From the IMG/VR virus record IMGVR_UViG_2778261162_000009: 24,974 nucleotides of DNA; one strand, given 5' to 3'. A program made the translations under genes and the position numbers. Below the pieces are notes generated by a model. The model was not told the origin of the DNA, did not search any database, and was given only the letters and a program-made list of their open reading frames with translations. Each line of letters starts with the position of its first letter. The stretch's first letter is position 1. The DNA is from a virus. Taxonomy: Duplodnaviria > Heunggongvirae > Uroviricota > Caudoviricetes. Positions 1 to 12,768 of this stretch are shown here, piece after piece.

Positions 1-1002
1 TTACCCTCTATTGTCAAAAGGGTTCAATTCAACAGCAGCCTCTAAATGACCTGGAGCAAAATGCGCATAACGCATAGTCATTTTTATATCGCTATGCCCC
101 AGTATTTTTTGCAACACAAGAATATTTCCGCCCCGCATCATAAAATGACTGGCAAACGTGTGACGTAGCACATGAGTTAATTGCCCATCAGGAAGCTCGA
201 TCTTCGCTCTCTTAATTGCAGCGTCAAAAGCCTCATAACATGGTGAAAATAGCGCTCCTCGTTTTTTAGGAAGCATAGCCTGCAATTGAGGTGAAATCGG
301 TACAGTGCGGTTCTTCTTTCCTTTAGTTTTAACAAATGTGATTCGACCGGGCAGTACTTGAGATTGCTTTAATCCTTCTGCTTCACTCCACCGAGCACCC
401 GTCGCAAGCCCAATACGGACAACAACCCCCAAATCTTTATTCCGTGACTCATCACACGCAATCAGAAGGCGCTCAATCTCATCTACATACAGAAACGCCA
501 GTTCCTTTTCTTCCTCACGAAACTTGCGAATACCAGTCAGGGGGTTTTCACCAGACCACTCCCCAAGGCGCTTCAGTTCGGCAAAAACAGCATGTAGATA
601 TGACTGCTCGCGATTAACGGTTGCTTCACTAAGTTTTTTCTTCCCCTTGGGATTCCATTCTCCTGATAGCCTTCTTTCCCGATAAGTAGCAAACATATTT
701 TTGTCAAACTGAGAAGCAAATGGATCTCCCAGCCTGGAACAAATCGCCTCAAGTTTGACTTTGCGCTCTGCACCAGAGGACAAGGTTTTACCGTACATCT
801 CAAACCAACGAGCAATCAACTCAGAAAGACGAGGACCAGAACCATCTTGAAACTCGTCTCCAACTCTACTATTCATTAAACGGCGCTCATAAGAGAGCGC
901 CTCACTTTTTGTCGCAAACTGTTTACGAATGCGTTTTCCCGATACCCCGTAGGGATAACATTCGCAAAGCCATTTACCTGATGGAATCTTACGAACCGAC
1001 AT
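1..1002 (-). CDS. int: Tyrosine-recombinase integrase (P2 Int family), 333 aa; stop codon sits at the window edge
   Basis: ORF translation has integrase-like C-terminal catalytic region (…HVLRHTFASHF…MRYAHF…); position next to the repressor as in P2/186 prophages. Confidence 0.88.
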   Translation of the reverse strand: MSVRKIPSGKWLCECYPYGVSGKRIRKQFATKSEALSYERRLMNSRVGDEFQDGSGPRLSELIARWFEMYGKTLSSGAERKVKLEAICSRLGDPFASQFDKNMFATYRERRLSGEWNPKGKKKLSEATVNREQSYLHAVFAELKRLGEWSGENPLTGIRKFREEEKELAFLYVDEIERLLIACDESRNKDLGVVVRIGLATGARWSEAEGLKQSQVLPGRITFVKTKGKKNRTVPISPQLQAMLPKKRGALFSPCYEAFDAAIKRAKIELPDGQLTHVLRHTFASHFMMRGGNILVLQKILGHSDIKMTMRYAHFAPGHLEAAVELNPFDNRG

Positions 1003-5903: not shown

Positions 5904-6293
5904 ATGATTGACGCTCATGACTTCACAAGATGGGTGCGCACACAGGACACCCGTCTGGCTCCCGTTCTTCAGGGATTATTTGATCTCTACATCCGTGGCC
6001 GTGACAACAGAGCACGCACCACAAAACCAGAGAATGCAGACACCCTTTATTTCACAGTAGACGACTGCTACCGCGTGGACTTCACACCACACGGGCTGGC
6101 GTTGCACTGCCTGACACCACACGGAGGATCACTGCTAGCGTATTACGACTCCCCGGCCTCCGTATTTGCGGCAATGCTGGCGCATTGCACTGCTGGCGGG
6201 TGTGCCTCGCTGAGTGAATACACCGCTGAATTTAACCGCCTTTCTGCCCTCTTCTCGCAGGAGTGGCAGCGCGTGACGGGATACCAGCCATGA
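5904..6293 (+). CDS. Hypothetical early protein, 129 aa
   Basis: ORF immediately upstream of and overlapping gene A start. Confidence 0.5.
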   Translation: MIDAHDFTRWVRTQDTRLAPVLQGLFDLYIRGRDNRARTTKPENADTLYFTVDDCYRVDFTPHGLALHCLTPHGGSLLAYYDSPASVFAAMLAHCTAGGCASLSEYTAEFNRLSALFSQEWQRVTGYQP

Positions 6294-9130
6294 GTGAGTT
6301 TGCATGGAGCTGGAATGAACCACGGCCAGCCATTGATCCGGCCAGATTTACGGAGCACAGGCAGGAAACTGAAACCGACCTGCAACGCGCCATCCGTTAC
6401 TACCTTGAGGCAGACAAAAAGGCTCTGGAAGAACAGGAAGCGAAGGAGGAAGCCTTTTTCGCACAATCCACCGTGGGTAAAAAACTCATGGCATCCCTTG
6501 AGGAAGCCGGACAGCGTGAAAAGCTGGCACAAAGCATCATCAGCAATCGTCAGGCAACAGAACAAGACCCGGTGGCCCGTGCTTTTGCCACACTGAAGGT
6601 GCTTCCCGTTTATCTGCGTGAACCTCTGAGCCACCACCTCTCTTTCCTGCGCAAAAAACAGGAAGCCGATCGCCAGAAAGGCAAAAAGAGCTGGCAGGCT
6701 GAACGCTACGCGCGCGGAACCCTGCGCAAAATATTCGAACGTCTGGACCGCACCGATCACCGCTGGCTGACACCGGGTTATCGCTCCCTTGCCGGACGCG
6801 AACGCCTGGACGATTTGCTTTACCTGCCGCAGCTCAACAAACACCAGATACAGACGCTGGCCACCATGACGGCGGCGATGTTCAGCAGCACCTTCGAAAA
6901 ACTCTGCGATGGCTTTGGCGCGACTGATGGCGAACTGACCATGGATGTAACGCTGAAGGCGTATCAGATGCTGGCCCGCATGGCGTTACACCTGCACGCC
7001 ATGCCTCCACATTATGACGCACTGACAACAGACAAAGACCGGAGGAACGAACCGGACACGGAGCTGCTGCCGGGCGCAATCCTTCGCCTGACCTGTGCGG
7101 AATGGTGGAAACGCAAACTGTGGCTGTTACGTTGCGAGTGGAGAGAAGAACAACTCCGCGCCGCCTGTCTGGTTTCCAGAAAAACATCACCCTATCTGAG
7201 CCAGGACGCGTTAAGCGAGTTTCGCGCACAGCGCGAGAAAACACGCGATTTCCTGAAAAGTTTCATGCTGGAAAATGAAGACGGGTTCACGATTGATCTC
7301 GAGACGGTGTATTACGCGGGAGTAAGTAACCCGGTTCACCGTAAGGCAGAAATGATGGCCACCATGAAGGGACTGGAACTTCTGGCCGAAGCCCGTGGCG
7401 ACAGAGCGGTGTTTCTGACTGTCACCTGCCCGTCAAAATACCACGCAACAACGGAGAACGGTCATCCGAACCCCAAATGGAACGGGGCCACCATGCGCGA
7501 CTCCAGCGATTACCTGGTTAACACGTTTTTTGCGGCGGTCCGCAAAAAACTGAACCGCGACGGTCTGCGCTGGTATGGCATCCGCACGGTGGAGCCTCAC
7601 CATGACGGCACTGTGCACTGGCACATGATGGTCTTTGCACATCCGGACGAGATTGAAACCATCGTGTCCCACGTCTGCGATATTGCCATTCAGGAAGACC
7701 GCCACGAGCTGGGCGATGACATAACTCCGCGTTTTAAGGCGGAGTACGTAGACGGCTCAAAAGGCACACCAACCAGCTACATCGCCACCTACATCGGAAA
7801 GAACCTGGACAGCCGCGCCGTGGATGGCATCGACCCGAAAACGGGCAAGCCACGCGTTGACCACGAAACCGGAAAATCAATGGCCGAGAGCGTGGAACGC
7901 GCCATCGGCTGGGCGCGCCTTCACCGGGTCCGCCAGTTCCAGTTCTTTGGTATCCCCTCCCGTCAGGTGTGGCGTGAACTGCGTCGCCTTGCCAGCCAGA
8001 TGGCACGCAACCCGGAAGGCCCGCAACGGCTGAAGGATGACGCAATGGACGCGGTACTCGCTGCCGCTGATGCCGGATGTTTTGCCACCTACATTGAGAA
8101 ACAGGGTGGCGTACTTGTTCCACGCAAGGACTACCTGATTCGCACCGCCTACGACCTCGCAGATGAGCTGAACGATTACGGCGAACAGAGCGTACAGATT
8201 TACGGGATCTGGTCACCACTCATCGGGGAGTCTTCCCGTGTGTGCACACATCCGGATAACTGGAAGCTGGTAAGACGTAAACCGGAAGCGGAAGACAGCG
8301 CCCGCGAAAATGGTTTTGACCTTCAGGGCGGCCCTGCCGCCCCTTGGACTCGTGGCAATAACTGTCCCCGTGTACAGGAAACGGACAACAACGGGACAGA
8401 ACAGCCGGAAGAACGGCCAGCACCGTGGCCGCAGCTTCCTGACGGCGTTGATGTGGATGAATGGATGCGCTCACTGAAACGGCACGAACGCCGGGCGCTG
8501 ATGCGTTCGCTTCGTGACAAACAGGCAAAAAACAGCAGTGATGAAATGCAGAGCTGGACACAGAGCCGCAAACAGCAGCGGCCTTTGCCTGATAACTACG
8601 AATTACTCGCTAAAGAATGGCGGGAATCTGCCGAATCTCTCGGCCTGCATATCGGTGAACAGCAGATGCAGCACCTGTTACGGGGCGGCAGCCTGTACGT
8701 TGACGGCAGCATCATTGCACCGCAGGGATTTGAAATTGTACGCAAACCGGATACCCGCCCGGACAGCCGAATCACGCAGCTCTGGCAGCGCCTGAGCCGT
8801 AATCACGGCGTAAGCAGCACAGAGATCCGCCATAACCCGGTCGCCAGCTATCTGGAACAACTGGGGGCATCAGACCCCGAAGCCGCCGCACGTCTGGCAT
8901 CCACACTTCAGCAGGACCAGAACACCATGAAAACCCCCGTTACCGTGCTTTCTGACATGCTGCGCGCCATCCGTGACGCAGAGCACGCACAGAGAATCAG
9001 TGAAACCACTGAACGCGCCCACCGCAAAGCAGACCTGCTGCGGGGTAGCCTGACCAGTGGAAACAAAAAACAGACAGAAACGGGACTCACAAATCCCGTA
9101 AATGAGCAAAAAACGCGCCGCGATATATGA
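6290..9130 (+). CDS. A: Replication initiation protein, P2 gpA-like rolling-circle endonuclease, about 946 aa
   Basis: Motif VEPHHDGTVHWHMMVF (HxH metal-binding motif of gpA family) and YIATYIGKN (catalytic Tyr region); start ATG 6290 overlaps upstream stop. Confidence 0.88.
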   Translation: MSEFAWSWNEPRPAIDPARFTEHRQETETDLQRAIRYYLEADKKALEEQEAKEEAFFAQSTVGKKLMASLEEAGQREKLAQSIISNRQATEQDPVARAFATLKVLPVYLREPLSHHLSFLRKKQEADRQKGKKSWQAERYARGTLRKIFERLDRTDHRWLTPGYRSLAGRERLDDLLYLPQLNKHQIQTLATMTAAMFSSTFEKLCDGFGATDGELTMDVTLKAYQMLARMALHLHAMPPHYDALTTDKDRRNEPDTELLPGAILRLTCAEWWKRKLWLLRCEWREEQLRAACLVSRKTSPYLSQDALSEFRAQREKTRDFLKSFMLENEDGFTIDLETVYYAGVSNPVHRKAEMMATMKGLELLAEARGDRAVFLTVTCPSKYHATTENGHPNPKWNGATMRDSSDYLVNTFFAAVRKKLNRDGLRWYGIRTVEPHHDGTVHWHMMVFAHPDEIETIVSHVCDIAIQEDRHELGDDITPRFKAEYVDGSKGTPTSYIATYIGKNLDSRAVDGIDPKTGKPRVDHETGKSMAESVERAIGWARLHRVRQFQFFGIPSRQVWRELRRLASQMARNPEGPQRLKDDAMDAVLAAADAGCFATYIEKQGGVLVPRKDYLIRTAYDLADELNDYGEQSVQIYGIWSPLIGESSRVCTHPDNWKLVRRKPEAEDSARENGFDLQGGPAAPWTRGNNCPRVQETDNNGTEQPEERPAPWPQLPDGVDVDEWMRSLKRHERRALMRSLRDKQAKNSSDEMQSWTQSRKQQRPLPDNYELLAKEWRESAESLGLHIGEQQMQHLLRGGSLYVDGSIIAPQGFEIVRKPDTRPDSRITQLWQRLSRNHGVSSTEIRHNPVASYLEQLGASDPEAAARLASTLQQDQNTMKTPVTVLSDMLRAIRDAEHAQRISETTERAHRKADLLRGSLTSGNKKQTETGLTNPVNEQKTRRDI

Positions 9131-9175
9131 AGCGCGCACAAAACAGGCAAAAGCGGGATTTAAAAATCCTGTAAC
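9080..9175. promoter_or_regulatory. Two related palindromic sites (ACGGGActcacaaaTCCCGT at 9080-9099; GGATTTaaAAATCC at 9156-9169) upstream of parM-like gene; candidate ParR operator/centromere
   Basis: Direct repeat of about 20 bp, each copy internally palindromic, sharing AAATCC(C/T)GTAA; second copy about 35 bp upstream of parM start. Confidence 0.35.
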
Positions 9176-9206
9176 CGATTAATTAATCAACATAAGGAAA
9201 AGCGAC

Positions 9207-10166
9207 ATGAAAATTTGTATCGACGACGGCTCCACCAACATCAAGCTGGCATGGACTGAGAACGGCAAACGCCGCAACGCCATCAGCCCGAACAGCTTCA
9301 AGTCGGAATGGTCTGCGCCGTTCGGTGGCACGCAGCCCGCGAACTACATGCTTGATGGCGTGCGCTATGGCTTTGATCCGGTCAGCGATCGCTTTGTCCA
9401 GACGACCGACACGCAATACCAGTACAGCGATGTGAATGTCATTGCCATTCATCACGCGCTGGTCAAATCAGGCATCACGCCACAGGAGGTGGATGTGGTT
9501 GTCACCCTGCCACTGAGCGAGTATTTCGACACAAACGCACAGCCGGACATGGCCAACATCAGCCGCAAAAAAGCGAACGTTATGCGCCCGGTGGAGTACC
9601 AGAACGGCGAAGCATTCACTATCCGTAACGTACGGGTTATGCCTGAATCCATTCCGGCTGGCTTTAAGGCACTGGCTGACATGAGTCCGTTTGAATCCCT
9701 GCTGATTGTGGATTTGGGCGGAACCACGCTGGATGTGGCAAAGGTTCAGGGGCAACTGGCAGGTATTAGCCAGGTGTTTTGCGATCCACACGTAGGCGTT
9801 TCTCTGATGGCCGATGCCGTACTGTCGGTGATGGCCACTAACGGTATGCGTACCAGTCACCACATCGCCAATACCATTATCGAACATCGCCATGATGAAG
9901 CCTGGCTGCGCCAGCACATCCACAATGACGCGCATTACGCCAGCCTGATGGCGGTTATTCGTGAAAAGGAAGAAACACTGAAACAACGCGTGATCCGCGC
10001 GCTGGCGGTTTTTTCGGGTTACGGGCGGGTGATGGTTGTCGGTGGCGGGGCGGAGATTGTGGCACCCGCTATCCGCGAAGCCTGCGGAGTTAATGCGACT
10101 TTCATCGCGGACGGGGTGCCACAGTTTGCTCTGGTTAATGGGCTGTACGCAATGGACAAGGAGTAA
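9207..10166 (+). CDS. parM: ParM/StbA-like actin-type ATPase, 319 aa
   Basis: Strong resemblance to plasmid R1 ParM from memory: MKICIDDGSTNIKLAW, SPNSF, YSDVNV…HHAL, VMPESIPAG, DLGGTTLD, VGGGAE, LVNG. Confidence 0.85.
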   Translation: MKICIDDGSTNIKLAWTENGKRRNAISPNSFKSEWSAPFGGTQPANYMLDGVRYGFDPVSDRFVQTTDTQYQYSDVNVIAIHHALVKSGITPQEVDVVVTLPLSEYFDTNAQPDMANISRKKANVMRPVEYQNGEAFTIRNVRVMPESIPAGFKALADMSPFESLLIVDLGGTTLDVAKVQGQLAGISQVFCDPHVGVSLMADAVLSVMATNGMRTSHHIANTIIEHRHDEAWLRQHIHNDAHYASLMAVIREKEETLKQRVIRALAVFSGYGRVMVVGGGAEIVAPAIREACGVNATFIADGVPQFALVNGLYAMDKE

Positions 10167-10170
10167 ACCA

Positions 10171-10485
10171 ATGACGACACCAACCAGACGGATAAGTTTC
10201 TATCTGAAGCCAGCTGCAGTCAAGAGTGAACGGGAAGCGTGTAATTATCTCGACAGCCTGCCAGCCTCCGAACGCAGCCGCGCGCAACGCGCGGCATTTC
10301 TGGCTGGACTGGCACTCATTAAAAACGATCCTGCCTTTGCTTACTGGCTGGCTGAATGGTCAGAGGGGGAAAATATGCCTGCCAACAATCACATATGGGG
10401 CTGGCATAACAGCGAGCCTGCTGGTTGCAAAAATCAGAATATAAGTCAAATAAAAAAGAATATTCAGGAATTTTTTCCTGAATGA
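10171..10485 (+). CDS. parR: ParR/StbB-like partition adaptor, about 104 aa
   Basis: RRISFYLKP…LDSLPASERSRAQRAAFLAGLAL matches ParR N-terminal RHH region; AGGAG SD; directly downstream of parM. Confidence 0.65.
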   Translation: MTTPTRRISFYLKPAAVKSEREACNYLDSLPASERSRAQRAAFLAGLALIKNDPAFAYWLAEWSEGENMPANNHIWGWHNSEPAGCKNQNISQIKKNIQEFFPE

Positions 10486-10490
10486 TCACA

Positions 10491-10516
10491 AAAAGCATGG
10501 CTTTCGCCATGCTTTT
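10491..10516. terminator. Bidirectional intrinsic terminator (AAAAGCATGGC-tttc-GCCATGCTTTT)
   Basis: Perfect hairpin flanked by A-run and T-run. Confidence 0.6.
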
Positions 10517-10528
10517 AAATATCAAATA

Positions 10529-10678
10529 TCAGCTTCGCACTAGAAACGCCCAAGCTTTCCAGCCATACTCATGAGCATCCAGCTTTCGACCAGAATCACC
10601 ACGAACCTTACGGTATCGGCAAAACTGCCAACGAAATCCTTTCGGAGCCGGTTTTTTTACAATTGATTTCAAAGCCAT
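10529..10678 (-). CDS. Unannotated small ORF, 49 aa, basic (MALKSIVKKPAPKGFRWQFCRYRKVRGDSGRKLDAHEYGWKAWAFLVRS)
   Basis: Consensus SD AAGGAGGTGA upstream; lies between two terminators; below ORF-track cutoff. Confidence 0.3.
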   Translation of the reverse strand: MALKSIVKKPAPKGFRWQFCRYRKVRGDSGRKLDAHEYGWKAWAFLVRS

Positions 10679-10807
10679 CCATAATCACCTCCTTACTGAG
10701 AATGATTTTTACCTTGATTATCTGCCTGGATTGACTAGAATCACAGTTGTACATGCAAAACATCAAGGTGATGATATTTCTCAGACTATCATTTCTTTGT
10801 GTTGAAA

Positions 10808-10837
10808 AGCCCCTGACGGTTGGCCCCGTCAGGGGCT
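10808..10837. terminator. Intrinsic terminator after the antitoxin gene (AGCCCCTGACGG…CCGTCAGGGGCT)
   Basis: 12-bp perfect stem; U-rich tract follows on minus strand. Confidence 0.6.
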
Positions 10838-10843
10838 TAATAT

Positions 10844-11161
10844 TTATGCAACCTGACAGGAATGTTCTGCCGTCGCAGTAACAACCCCACCGGAATACCC
10901 AAACTTAAAATCCCACCCCAGGATGTTTAGCATGATAAACAGTCGATCAATGGTATGATTATCTAACTTACCATTAATGATTTCGCTTACTCTTGGTTGG
11001 GTAGTTTCCAGCAATTCAGCAGCTTCTCGCTGGGTAAGACCGCGCTCCTGAATCATTTTTCGGATAATAACCATTAATTGGGCCCGGATGTGTTTATCAC
11101 TAGCTTCATTTACAGAGCTACTTGATGACGCATAAGGGTTTTTGACTACGACGAATTCCAT
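10844..11161 (-). CDS. HigA-like XRE-HTH antitoxin, 105 aa
   Basis: HTH pattern GLTQREAAELLETTQPRVSEIINGKL; downstream of Gp49-family toxin gene. Confidence 0.7.
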   Translation of the reverse strand: MEFVVVKNPYASSSSSVNEASDKHIRAQLMVIIRKMIQERGLTQREAAELLETTQPRVSEIINGKLDNHTIDRLFIMLNILGWDFKFGYSGGVVTATAEHSCQVA

Positions 11162-11231
11162 AACTCTCCAGCCTTAATCAGCGATGTTGCTGACATTGAT
11201 TATGTTATATCAGATTTGAGATACCTGCAAG

Positions 11232-11633
11232 CTATCTTAAGCCATTTTTACGACGATACTCCACTAATTGTTTGTATCTTGCGGCAGCTGTCTCATATTC
11301 TTTTTTTGACACACCATTTGTCTTTTTCTTAAATGTATGAAGTATGTAAACAGACTCCGCAAATTTCGCAACGTAAATCATACGATAAGAATCACTACTC
11401 TTGATGGTTAATTGCATTGCGTAGCGACCAATCGTTTCCCGCATTGATTTTTTTTGAGCAGGTGGAACCCCCAAGGCATCATCACCATCCACTGGAAAAT
11501 CGAAACTGTCGAAAGAATGAGGACAATCGCTCTGCAGTGCAACAAGCTCAAAATTTATCCTTTCTCGAACAGCTTCAGGATAACTATCAATTTGTTTCTG
11601 AATTTTATCATTCCAATATGTGATGTCTTTCAC
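11232..11633 (-). CDS. HigB/RelE-superfamily toxin of the Gp49-like family, 133 aa
   Basis: C-terminal signature RMIYVAKFAESVYILHTFKKKTNGVSKKEYETAAARYKQL; GTG start with GAGAGG SD; toxin-first order typical of HigBA. Confidence 0.65.
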   Translation of the reverse strand: MKDITYWNDKIQKQIDSYPEAVRERINFELVALQSDCPHSFDSFDFPVDGDDALGVPPAQKKSMRETIGRYAMQLTIKSSDSYRMIYVAKFAESVYILHTFKKKTNGVSKKEYETAAARYKQLVEYRRKNGLR

Positions 11634-12243
11634 TCAGAACCTCTCACCAACGTAACCGAACGAAATTATACAAAGATCTTTTTTCGCTTAAATACATCCA
11701 CTGAACGTTGATTTTAATGCAAGATTGTGCACAAATTTGCACAATTTTTTTGAACGACTTTTTGCCCTTCCGGCCCGCGTGGCGGCTGGATCCGCCAAGG
11801 ATCCGTGCGTGCACAAAAAAACGCGTTTTTTCTGCGCGCAGGTGACGGGGGAACAGCCCGCGTTTCAGGGGGTAAATAGCATCCCCTGAACGATGTCGCA
11901 GCGACACGACAGAATGGCTGTATTTCTCACGCTGAGCGTGAAAAAGACGTGAGGGTTTTTGATTTGATGGGGTGGCAGATAAGGCCGTCAAAATCGCACT
12001 GAGGCGGCGAGAACATGCAGTCAGCGCGATGGGATTGCGTAAGAGCCTGACCGTCGATGATGGCAATAAGCTGGAAGGCGTCGTGAAATTATCTGATTGA
12101 TACAGGAGCTGGAGAGTCGGGGCATAAATTTTTTATGCCCCGGCGAAGCAGCAGACAAGCGAAGCGCGTCAGTGATACGGCACCTTGCCGACCATACTTC
12201 ATAAGTGCAAAATACGAGCAAAGAAATCAATGGAGGCTGTCTT

Positions 12244-12768
12244 ATGGTCATTAATTACAAGCAGTTAAGAGAAAAACGGGAGCAGGTAAAGGAGAGCTTT
12301 CGCCGCAATGAAGATCTGACCCCGCTTGTACGCCTTGCCCAGGGCATTGTTGATGCTTATGAAATCTCGCTGGAGCTGCCATCACAGACCTGGACAGATA
12401 GCGATGGTAATCGCCAGCATTACGTTTCATGCGGACTGGAAGCAGCCGAAGGATTTCGCAGAATGCCTTTATCCCAGATCCCTGCCGCTACCCCCAAAGC
12501 ACGGGGCAGCAATGATGAGCGAAAACTGACTTTTAGTATTGAAACGGTGGTTGACGACACACCTGGCGAAGTCGCGTTCGTGCACACTCCTGTTTCGATC
12601 GCAATGTATAACGATGAAATACAGGTTCGCGTTAATAATAATATCGTGCCACTTAAAGAAGGTAATTCACCCTACACCACCGTTTGTGAAGCCATTCAAT
12701 ATTACGTTCTCTCTGAAATTGATAATCTCAAGCCTGACGGCACCCAGAAAATGGTTCAACTCTGGTAA
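12244..12768 (+). CDS. Orphan hypothetical protein, 174 aa (cargo gene between cos region and portal gene)
   Basis: ATG 12244 with GGAGG 7 nt upstream; convergent with Q; no recognisable domain. Confidence 0.6.
   Translation: MVINYKQLREKREQVKESFRRNEDLTPLVRLAQGIVDAYEISLELPSQTWTDSDGNRQHYVSCGLEAAEGFRRMPLSQIPAATPKARGSNDERKLTFSIETVVDDTPGEVAFVHTPVSIAMYNDEIQVRVNNNIVPLKEGNSPYTTVCEAIQYYVLSEIDNLKPDGTQKMVQLW

Follow-up and report, generated by a model that had tools for sequence, protein, structure and literature searches.

Actin-like DNA segregation systems combine a filament-forming protein with an adaptor that binds repeated cis-acting sites. In plasmid R1, the cis-acting site parC consists of two sets of five direct 11-bp iterons placed around a 39-bp promoter core (PMC2241845). 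In prophage CGP3 of Corynebacterium glutamicum, AlpA-AlpC-alpS pairs an actin-like filament with an adaptor binding repeats 5′ of its own operon; its expression begins early upon induction, phage replication is inefficient without it, and excised circles of phage DNA were proposed as its target (PMC4446434). In the gpA-gpQ hotspot, about a quarter of E. coli P2-like phages were reported to encode a putative system for plasmid partitioning, suggesting maintenance as plasmids, in a study that described no cis site and tested no function (Rousset et al. 2022; PMC9122126). Here we analysed such a locus in the 24,974-bp stretch of IMG/VR record IMGVR_UViG_2778261162_000009 (the window), a P2-family prophage of the P88-like type (Xuanwuvirus). 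Two palindromes directly 5′ of its parM and parR genes (parMR) probably are the cis-acting ParR-binding sites, equivalent to parC, of a compact type II ParMRC cassette.

The cassette (∼9040-10485, 1.45 kb) lies in the cargo hotspot between gene A and the portal gene, exactly the gpA-gpQ position of Rousset et al. Over 8900-10600, the surrounding sequence shares 94-96% identity with phage P88 and relatives, and it was matched in 1358 of 5426 complete E. coli genomes (∼25%), in agreement with their figure of about a quarter. Since parMR cargo had already been noted in the literature, its novelty is modest; our literature search found no study on the function or cis site of P88-like parMR.

The original prediction had called parM- and parR-like genes in the window, and matches in Pfam and the Protein Data Bank (PDB) established them as a genuine R1-family pair in a P2-like prophage. 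parM (9207-10166, plus strand, ATG at 9207) encodes an actin-like segregation ATPase of 319 amino acids. As expected of the ATPase of the ParMRC family, it matched the Pfam domains StbA_N (9.8e-82) and ParM C-terminal (6.3e-69), as well as R1 ParM in the PDB (1MWK, 8.1e-93), and its ATPase motifs are intact, with IDDGS, PES and DLGGTT all present. A ratio of nonsynonymous to synonymous substitution (dN/dS) of 0.078 over 140 alleles indicated strong purifying selection. parR (10171-10485, plus strand, StbB family) starts 5 nt 3′ of the parM stop with its own Shine-Dalgarno sequence and encodes a 104-amino-acid ribbon-helix-helix adaptor, the downstream partner typical of the family. It matched Plasmid_stab_B (PF10784, 2.1e-25) and, over residues 6-60, pB171 ParR (2JD3, E 0.003); the nearest plasmid ParR was of the IncF R1 type (43.5% identity over the N-terminal 62 amino acids). 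Its N-terminal strand reads TRRISFYLKP and its C-terminal tail KKNIQEFFPE, where a conserved (K/R)xN...(F/L)(F/I)P motif aligns with R1 TKKNAMKLIN. Judged by sequence, both proteins look functional, and the genes have the defining features of the R1 ParMRC family. Comparison of ParM and ParR with PADLOC defence models gave no matches.

Two ParR allele classes were present in the E. coli family, ∼53% identical overall, next to ParM proteins that are 98-99% identical (loci L001, L174 and L175). DNA homology to most phage records ends near 10360, inside parR. Common to both classes are the first 18 residues, including the β-strand (identical N-terminal strand MTTPTRRISFYLKP), the C-terminal FFPE/LFPE tail and the same sites upstream; no association between site alleles and the two classes was found in the E. 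coli family.

Upstream of parM, the original prediction had placed two related sites about 75 bp apart, sharing AAATCC(C/T)GTAA, and had read them by analogy with R1 as a candidate centromere/operator. The two sequences were found as described, ACGGGActcacaaaTCCCGT at 9080-9099 and GGATTTaaAAATCC at 9156-9169, with the common element at 9091-9101 and 9164-9174. The feature had been under-called, since a repeat search revealed a 38-bp direct repeat (9064-9101 and 9137-9174, 79% identical) with a spacing of 73 bp start to start. Each unit runs on the plus strand from an A-rich 16 nt into a palindromic site. Unit 1 falls within the final 22 codons of replication gene A (6263-9130, plus strand; Pfam Phage_GPA, 1.5e-129), so the first site is indeed within the 3′ end of that gene; unit 2 is non-coding, between the gene A stop and parM. 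Site 1 (9080-9099, no strand, ACGGGACTCACAAATCCCGT), with the core GGG-N10-CCC, is the putative distal ParR-binding site. Site 2, the second palindrome, spans 9153-9172 (no strand, GCGGGATTTAAAAATCCTGT) and is the putative proximal ParR-binding site and a possible operator. The window copies are slightly degenerate, with a minor allele at 9086 (C) and another at 9170 (T), the latter giving the proximal copy CCT in place of CCC.

The sites are specific to this position. The 21-nt core CGGGAYTYAMAAATCCYGTAA, a pattern itself derived from the two window copies, occurred in only two places in the 24,974 bp (both strands, at most 3 mismatches) and in 0/100 dinucleotide-preserving shuffles. The search for further copies elsewhere in the prophage, proposed as a check of the original prediction, was thus negative within 3 mismatches, and a shorter 11-mer gave one additional 1-mismatch match at 8200, within chance. 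Between site 2 and parM, the AT-rich motif ATTAATTAATCAA followed by the Shine-Dalgarno sequence AAGGAA (9178-9199, plus strand) is a candidate weak -10 region by sequence comparison; TTAATCAA, within this region, is also kept in Hafnia and Plesiomonas. A third, imperfect GC-rich dyad (9114-9138, CGCGAT-ATATGA-AGCGCG) is centred nearly midway between the sites and overlaps the gene A stop codon. Its arm resembles the site arms (CGCGAT vs CGGGAT), it is more polymorphic, and one haplotype has CCATAAAACATGAAGTGCG in its place.

Comparison with R1/R100 parC-parM-parR revealed the same order of cis site, parM and parR, a ParM ∼46% identical to the IncF copies, a ParR of the same StbB/ribbon-helix-helix family, a bipartite cis region in which a central segment separates two repeat units, and a similar Shine-Dalgarno context (ATAAGGA). 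The architecture of R1 parC, ten direct 11-bp iterons in two sets around a promoter, was not found; instead, the window has only two 20-bp palindromes 73 bp apart, without R1-iteron enrichment. The possibility that an R1-like iteron array is hidden in the A-rich flanks was ruled out, as a matrix of the ten R1 iterons showed no enrichment there. Further differences are the location of the distal site inside coding sequence, the lack of a recognisable promoter between the window sites (by a scan that misses the R1 promoter too), and the replicon, an integrated prophage in place of a low-copy plasmid. The StbA/StbB modules of IncL/M, IncI1 and the phage-plasmid D6 have ParM proteins 47-52% identical to that of the window, and their operons share its layout. 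In contrast to the window, these are autonomous replicons in which multiple direct iterons are arrayed on both sides of the parM promoter region, and for IncL/M the promoter scan called a clear promoter. The iterons are 10-11 bp long in all these relatives (IncF R1-type, IncL/M, IncI1 and D6).

To assess conservation, we used 114 distinct E. coli-family sequences upstream of parM. The original prediction had named absence of the repeats from relatives carrying the same genes as the observation that would speak against it; two sites were present in 111/114 of these sequences, 73 bp apart in 107 of the 111, and the proximal core began 53 nt 5′ of the parM ATG in 110/111. The consensus of each site in the relatives is a perfect 8+4+8 palindrome, ACGGGATT-N4-AATCCCGT, with CACA as the centre of site 1 (ACGGGATT-CACA-AATCCCGT) and TCAG as that of site 2 (ACGGGATT-TCAG-AATCCCGT). 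Diversity in the arms was ∼ten-fold below synonymous diversity. The arms of site 2 are nearly invariant except for C/T at 9170, whereas its centre (4-6 bases) is variable, with a nucleotide diversity (pi) of 0.165 vs 0.083 at parM 4-fold sites.

Alignment with P88-like prophages lacking parMR (L178 and L179) indicated to what the sites belong. Gene A is common to both kinds of phage up to ∼9030-9040, after which the sequences diverge and the palindromes are absent. This point is the left boundary of the parC-parM-parR cassette (9030-9040, no strand), also marked by the truncated matches H43 and H44. The exchangeable cargo cassette takes in the last ∼30 codons of gene A, and L178 and L179, with other cargo, have unrelated gene A C-termini. 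Since the palindromes are missing where parMR is missing, they belong to the parC-parM-parR cassette and not to the replication apparatus. The locus thus has repeated cis sites directly 5′ of parM that travel with the genes, at the position where R1-family systems keep parC (PMC2241845; plasmid comparisons). Regarding the centromere/operator reading of the original prediction, the R1-family genes and the inheritance of the sites with parMR support it in part, while the analogy with R1 itself is loose.

The same arrangement extends beyond E. coli. P2-like prophages of Hafnia, Plesiomonas, Serratia and Enterobacter carry parMR directly after gene A and 5′ of the portal gene, with ParM 54-62% identical to that of the window. 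Hafnia and Plesiomonas share with the window the order A-parM-parR-portal, and each has two GGG-N10-CCC sites, at -128/-55 (73 bp apart) and -131/-59 (72 bp apart), respectively; in the E. coli family they lie at -125/-52 from the parM ATG. GGG-N10-CCC is rare (0.1-0.5 per kb), so that matching positions across genera are unlikely by chance. The centre of the Plesiomonas site is not self-complementary, symmetry being confined to the GGG/CCC ends, which favours a model of protein half-sites over a hairpin. Searches for further lineages with two palindromes added little: single-protein scans with the Hafnia and Plesiomonas ParM gave almost nothing, other ParM scans mostly E. coli-type loci, the metagenome scan mostly plasmid-type loci, and the genome-contig scan three close relatives only.

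Serratia/Enterobacter-type prophages (type B) are organized differently, with one long inverted repeat (arms of ∼19 bp, GGGAACGAAATAGAAAAAT, with ∼27 nt between) located ∼60-130 nt 5′ of parM (L010, L092, L093, L094 and L176). This repeat contains ATTTTTCT, which is also the iteron core 5′ of the IncL/M (pOXA-48-like) parM. For eight ParR groups, we compared the N-terminal β-strand of ParR with the 7-mers repeated most often 5′ of parM. ParR proteins with TRR(I/V)SFYL paired with AATCCC(G/A) and ACGGGAT, the R1 type (RRTIAFKL) with AAACCC, and TRRKIxFY with TTATCTC. Both NRKISFYL (prophage type B) and NRKCSFYI (IncL/M plasmids) paired with ATTTTTC; possession of an NRK-SFY strand and ATTTTTC by both shows that phage and plasmid modules exchange. 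In this comparison of sequences, the upstream repeat motif tracks the class of the ParR N-terminal β-strand across the eight groups.

Lower-identity chromosomal ParM proteins provided no further two-palindrome lineage, and comprised an integrative conjugative element-like region, an integrated plasmid-like region and one short contig without upstream sequence. The first (L180, Dickeya; TraG_N, integrase) and the second (L181, Mangrovibacter; Rep3, UmuDC) carry parMR of ∼49-50% identity outside P2-like phages, in both cases with TTATCTC-type direct iterons 5′ of the genes.

Tracking of the ParR strand also bears on whether another DNA-binding protein, a phage regulator or host factor, uses the palindromes as operators while ParR binds elsewhere or nowhere. 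Perfect palindromes of 20 bp are common to dimeric regulators in general, the architecture is unlike that of characterised ParR centromeres, and the palindromes are linked to ParR by comparison. Nonetheless, the motif follows the β-strand class in phage and plasmid contexts alike, the sites lie within a three-element cassette and are lost when parMR is lost, ParR is the sole DNA-binding protein encoded in that cassette, and the 25-kb window holds no further copy. By eye, the sites do not resemble the LexA, CRP, IHF or P2 Ogr (TGT-N12-ACA) consensus. We consider a different binder quite unlikely.

Several observations weigh against assigning the palindromes to ParR. Support for this assignment is comparative, consisting of conservation, linkage to parMR and correlation with ParR type, and each of the first and last has its limits: overall diversity of the non-coding stretch is low, which restricts the power of the conservation argument, and the correlation of motif with β-strand is imperfect, since the IncI1 ParR (SRRCSFEL) goes with a different repeat. 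Only two sites (four half-sites) are present vs the ten R1 iterons, so the locus may be too small as a centromere, and the R1-iteron matrix gave 2 overlapping matches in 9040-9206, of 44 in the whole window. A σ70-type plus-strand promoter over the sites was not found, by a scan that overlooks the known R1 promoter too and is therefore uninformative; a weak candidate (TTTAAA-N17-ATTAAT) was seen by eye only. As to location, of the 1516 places matched in complete E. coli genomes, 1514 were chromosomal, so classical plasmid partition is not the normal situation of these elements. Finally, single-site variants occur in nature, and minus-strand T-runs follow the dyads of both the E. coli type and the Serratia/Enterobacter type, which are scored as intrinsic terminators.

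The single-site variants arose by two independent natural 73-bp deletions (L038/L168 and L210; IMG/VR and metagenome loci), which have different junctions, reflect recombination between the 38-bp direct repeats and leave the gene A frame open. Such loss, having occurred at least twice, together with the direct-repeat nature of the two units, would fit a functionless remnant of a local 73-bp duplication. A remnant would not account for a two-site layout that persists with different sequence in three genera, for arms held ∼ten-fold below synonymous diversity around a free centre, or for palindromic symmetry kept in both copies, and we regard it as very improbable.

The T-runs raise the strongest rival, that both hairpins are minus-strand intrinsic terminators stopping antisense transcripts, from cargo genes or the late portal-terminase operon, before they reach gene A and the origin. 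In the window and in P88, both sites were called as terminator-like on the minus strand, each with a stem of 8 bp, a loop of 4 nt and, after these, TTCTGTCTGTTTTTTG or TTTTTGCCTGTTTTG; this T-tract is the A-rich half of the 38-bp repeat. The long inverted repeat of the Serratia/Enterobacter type likewise has T5-6 after it on the minus strand. Moreover, minus-strand cargo genes point toward gene A, at 10844-11633 in the window and as KAP NTPase and DUF3800 genes in relatives. However, Hafnia and Plesiomonas keep GGG-N10-CCC, its spacing and its position without a T-run on either strand, and only a 4-bp stem is possible in Plesiomonas. An A/G polymorphism at junction base 9153 (pi 0.5) shortens the T-run, inheritance of the sites follows that of parMR and not that of gene A, and placing a terminator after 1.3 kb of antisense parMR transcription would be an odd design. 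Termination as the explanation of the sites is thus unlikely, but the two functions are compatible and a dual role is possible.

Hairpins could also act on the other strand, as RNA structures in an A-parM-parR transcript that affect its processing, its stability or parM translation, in place of DNA sites. Co-transcription is likely, as no plus-strand terminator lies between A and parM; the region is more stably folded than shuffled sequences (z = -2.8), pairing on the plus strand survives as G-U in the common C-to-T allele at 9170, and a 19-bp stem is possible at type B loci. Against this, other natural variants give A-C mismatches as often as wobble pairs, and palindromic protein sites yield the same apparent covariation. 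The Plesiomonas sites are limited to ∼4 bp of stem, the hairpin ends 35 nt 5′ of the ATG with the Shine-Dalgarno sequence outside, and a covariance-model search of 9040-9206 against Rfam 15 gave no match at E up to 1. An RNA role in place of DNA sites appears distinctly improbable.

Two palindromes bound by ParR thus remain the reading that we favour. ParR ribbon-helix-helix dimers would read the half-sites CGGGAT and ATCCCG (core GGG-N10-CCC), probably as a dimer of dimers. The 73-bp spacing is close to seven helical turns, placing both sites on the same face of the DNA, where they could nucleate one nucleoprotein complex. This complex might then capture the ends of ParM filaments via the conserved ParR C-terminal tail, pushing sister DNA circles apart. 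In addition, local transcription into parM may be reduced by ParR bound at the proximal site.

When and on what DNA would such a complex operate? Gene A and parM are separated by 76 nt on the same strand, and since no plus-strand terminator lies between them and no canonical promoter was detected, parMR is probably made together with the early replication operon. Co-expression with that operon in turn makes an excised or replicating phage circle the likely substrate, and not the integrated prophage. Action on such circles would parallel AlpAC of prophage CGP3. For an integrated prophage, AlpAC/alpS offers the closest functional analogue, in that both are prophage-encoded actin-like filaments with an adaptor, the P88-like case being known from sequence alone. 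The two systems differ in that their actin families show no relation in sequence, the alpAC operon begins with the adaptor gene, and alpS comprises 24 short TTAAnnG repeats vs two palindromes here.

Stabilization of an extrachromosomal low-copy replicon is at odds with the location of these elements, and the window carries an integrase gene (1-1002, minus strand). Plasmid maintenance, as suggested by Rousset et al., is therefore unsupported given the nearly exclusive chromosomal location. P2-type phages replicate and package monomeric circles. A tentative and rather doubtful proposal is that a quarter of E. coli P2-like prophages carry a pared-down ParMRC, with a two-palindrome centromere partly within a replication gene, which would be co-expressed with the early replication operon and would position or separate monomeric phage circles, or stabilise a transient episome after excision or infection, with no role in plasmid maintenance.

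Because the distal site lies in gene A, we also considered the palindromes as a replication origin or gene A target. This was ruled out. The annotated P2 origin nick, aligned by DNA sequence and protein context, placed the homologue of the nick site inside gene A at ∼8335-8370 (GCCCCTTGGACTCGTGGCAATAACTGT vs P2 GCGCCTCGGAGTCCTGTCAATAACTGT; conserved protein context AAP..NNC), ∼730 bp 5′ of the repeats. Moreover, parMR-less phages that have the same gene A do without the repeats.

In the rest of the window, the early genes follow the integrase, and parR is succeeded by a minus-strand pair of Gp49/helix-turn-helix (HTH) toxin-antitoxin-like genes and, beyond it, by portal and terminase. The pair lies within the cargo hotspot (10844-11633) and consists of a Gp49 (HigB-like) toxin and an HTH_37 antitoxin, the latter with a weak match to PADLOC candidate PDC-M64C (5.4e-05). 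It is followed by a 13-bp perfect GC-rich hairpin (10807-10838). An open reading frame of 187 amino acids (12205-12768) between this pair and the portal gene had no Pfam or PADLOC match. Among relatives of the prophage, a 226-kb contig labelled "Vagococcus sp.", a Firmicute (L004, NZ_JBQPOM010000071.1), contains a P88-like parM 97% identical to the E. coli copy; this assembly is probably contaminated or mislabelled.

ParMRC is the textbook case of actin-like plasmid segregation, and a complete copy under strong purifying selection lies within an integrated phage in ∼25% of complete E. coli genomes, a setting in which plasmid partition has no obvious role. The sites described here are to be expected in a known system and do not amount to a new mechanism; what is unusual is the chromosomally integrated setting and the minimal palindromic layout. 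The candidate cis site (9080-9099 and 9153-9172) defines the 1.45-kb cassette and makes its function directly testable. The locus would be a natural minimal centromere, suited to asking what number of ParR sites is the minimum for engaging a ParM filament. If the proposal on monomeric phage circles is true, the lytic cycle of a classical coliphage family would include an actin-based DNA-handling step, analogous to that of AlpAC in Corynebacterium.

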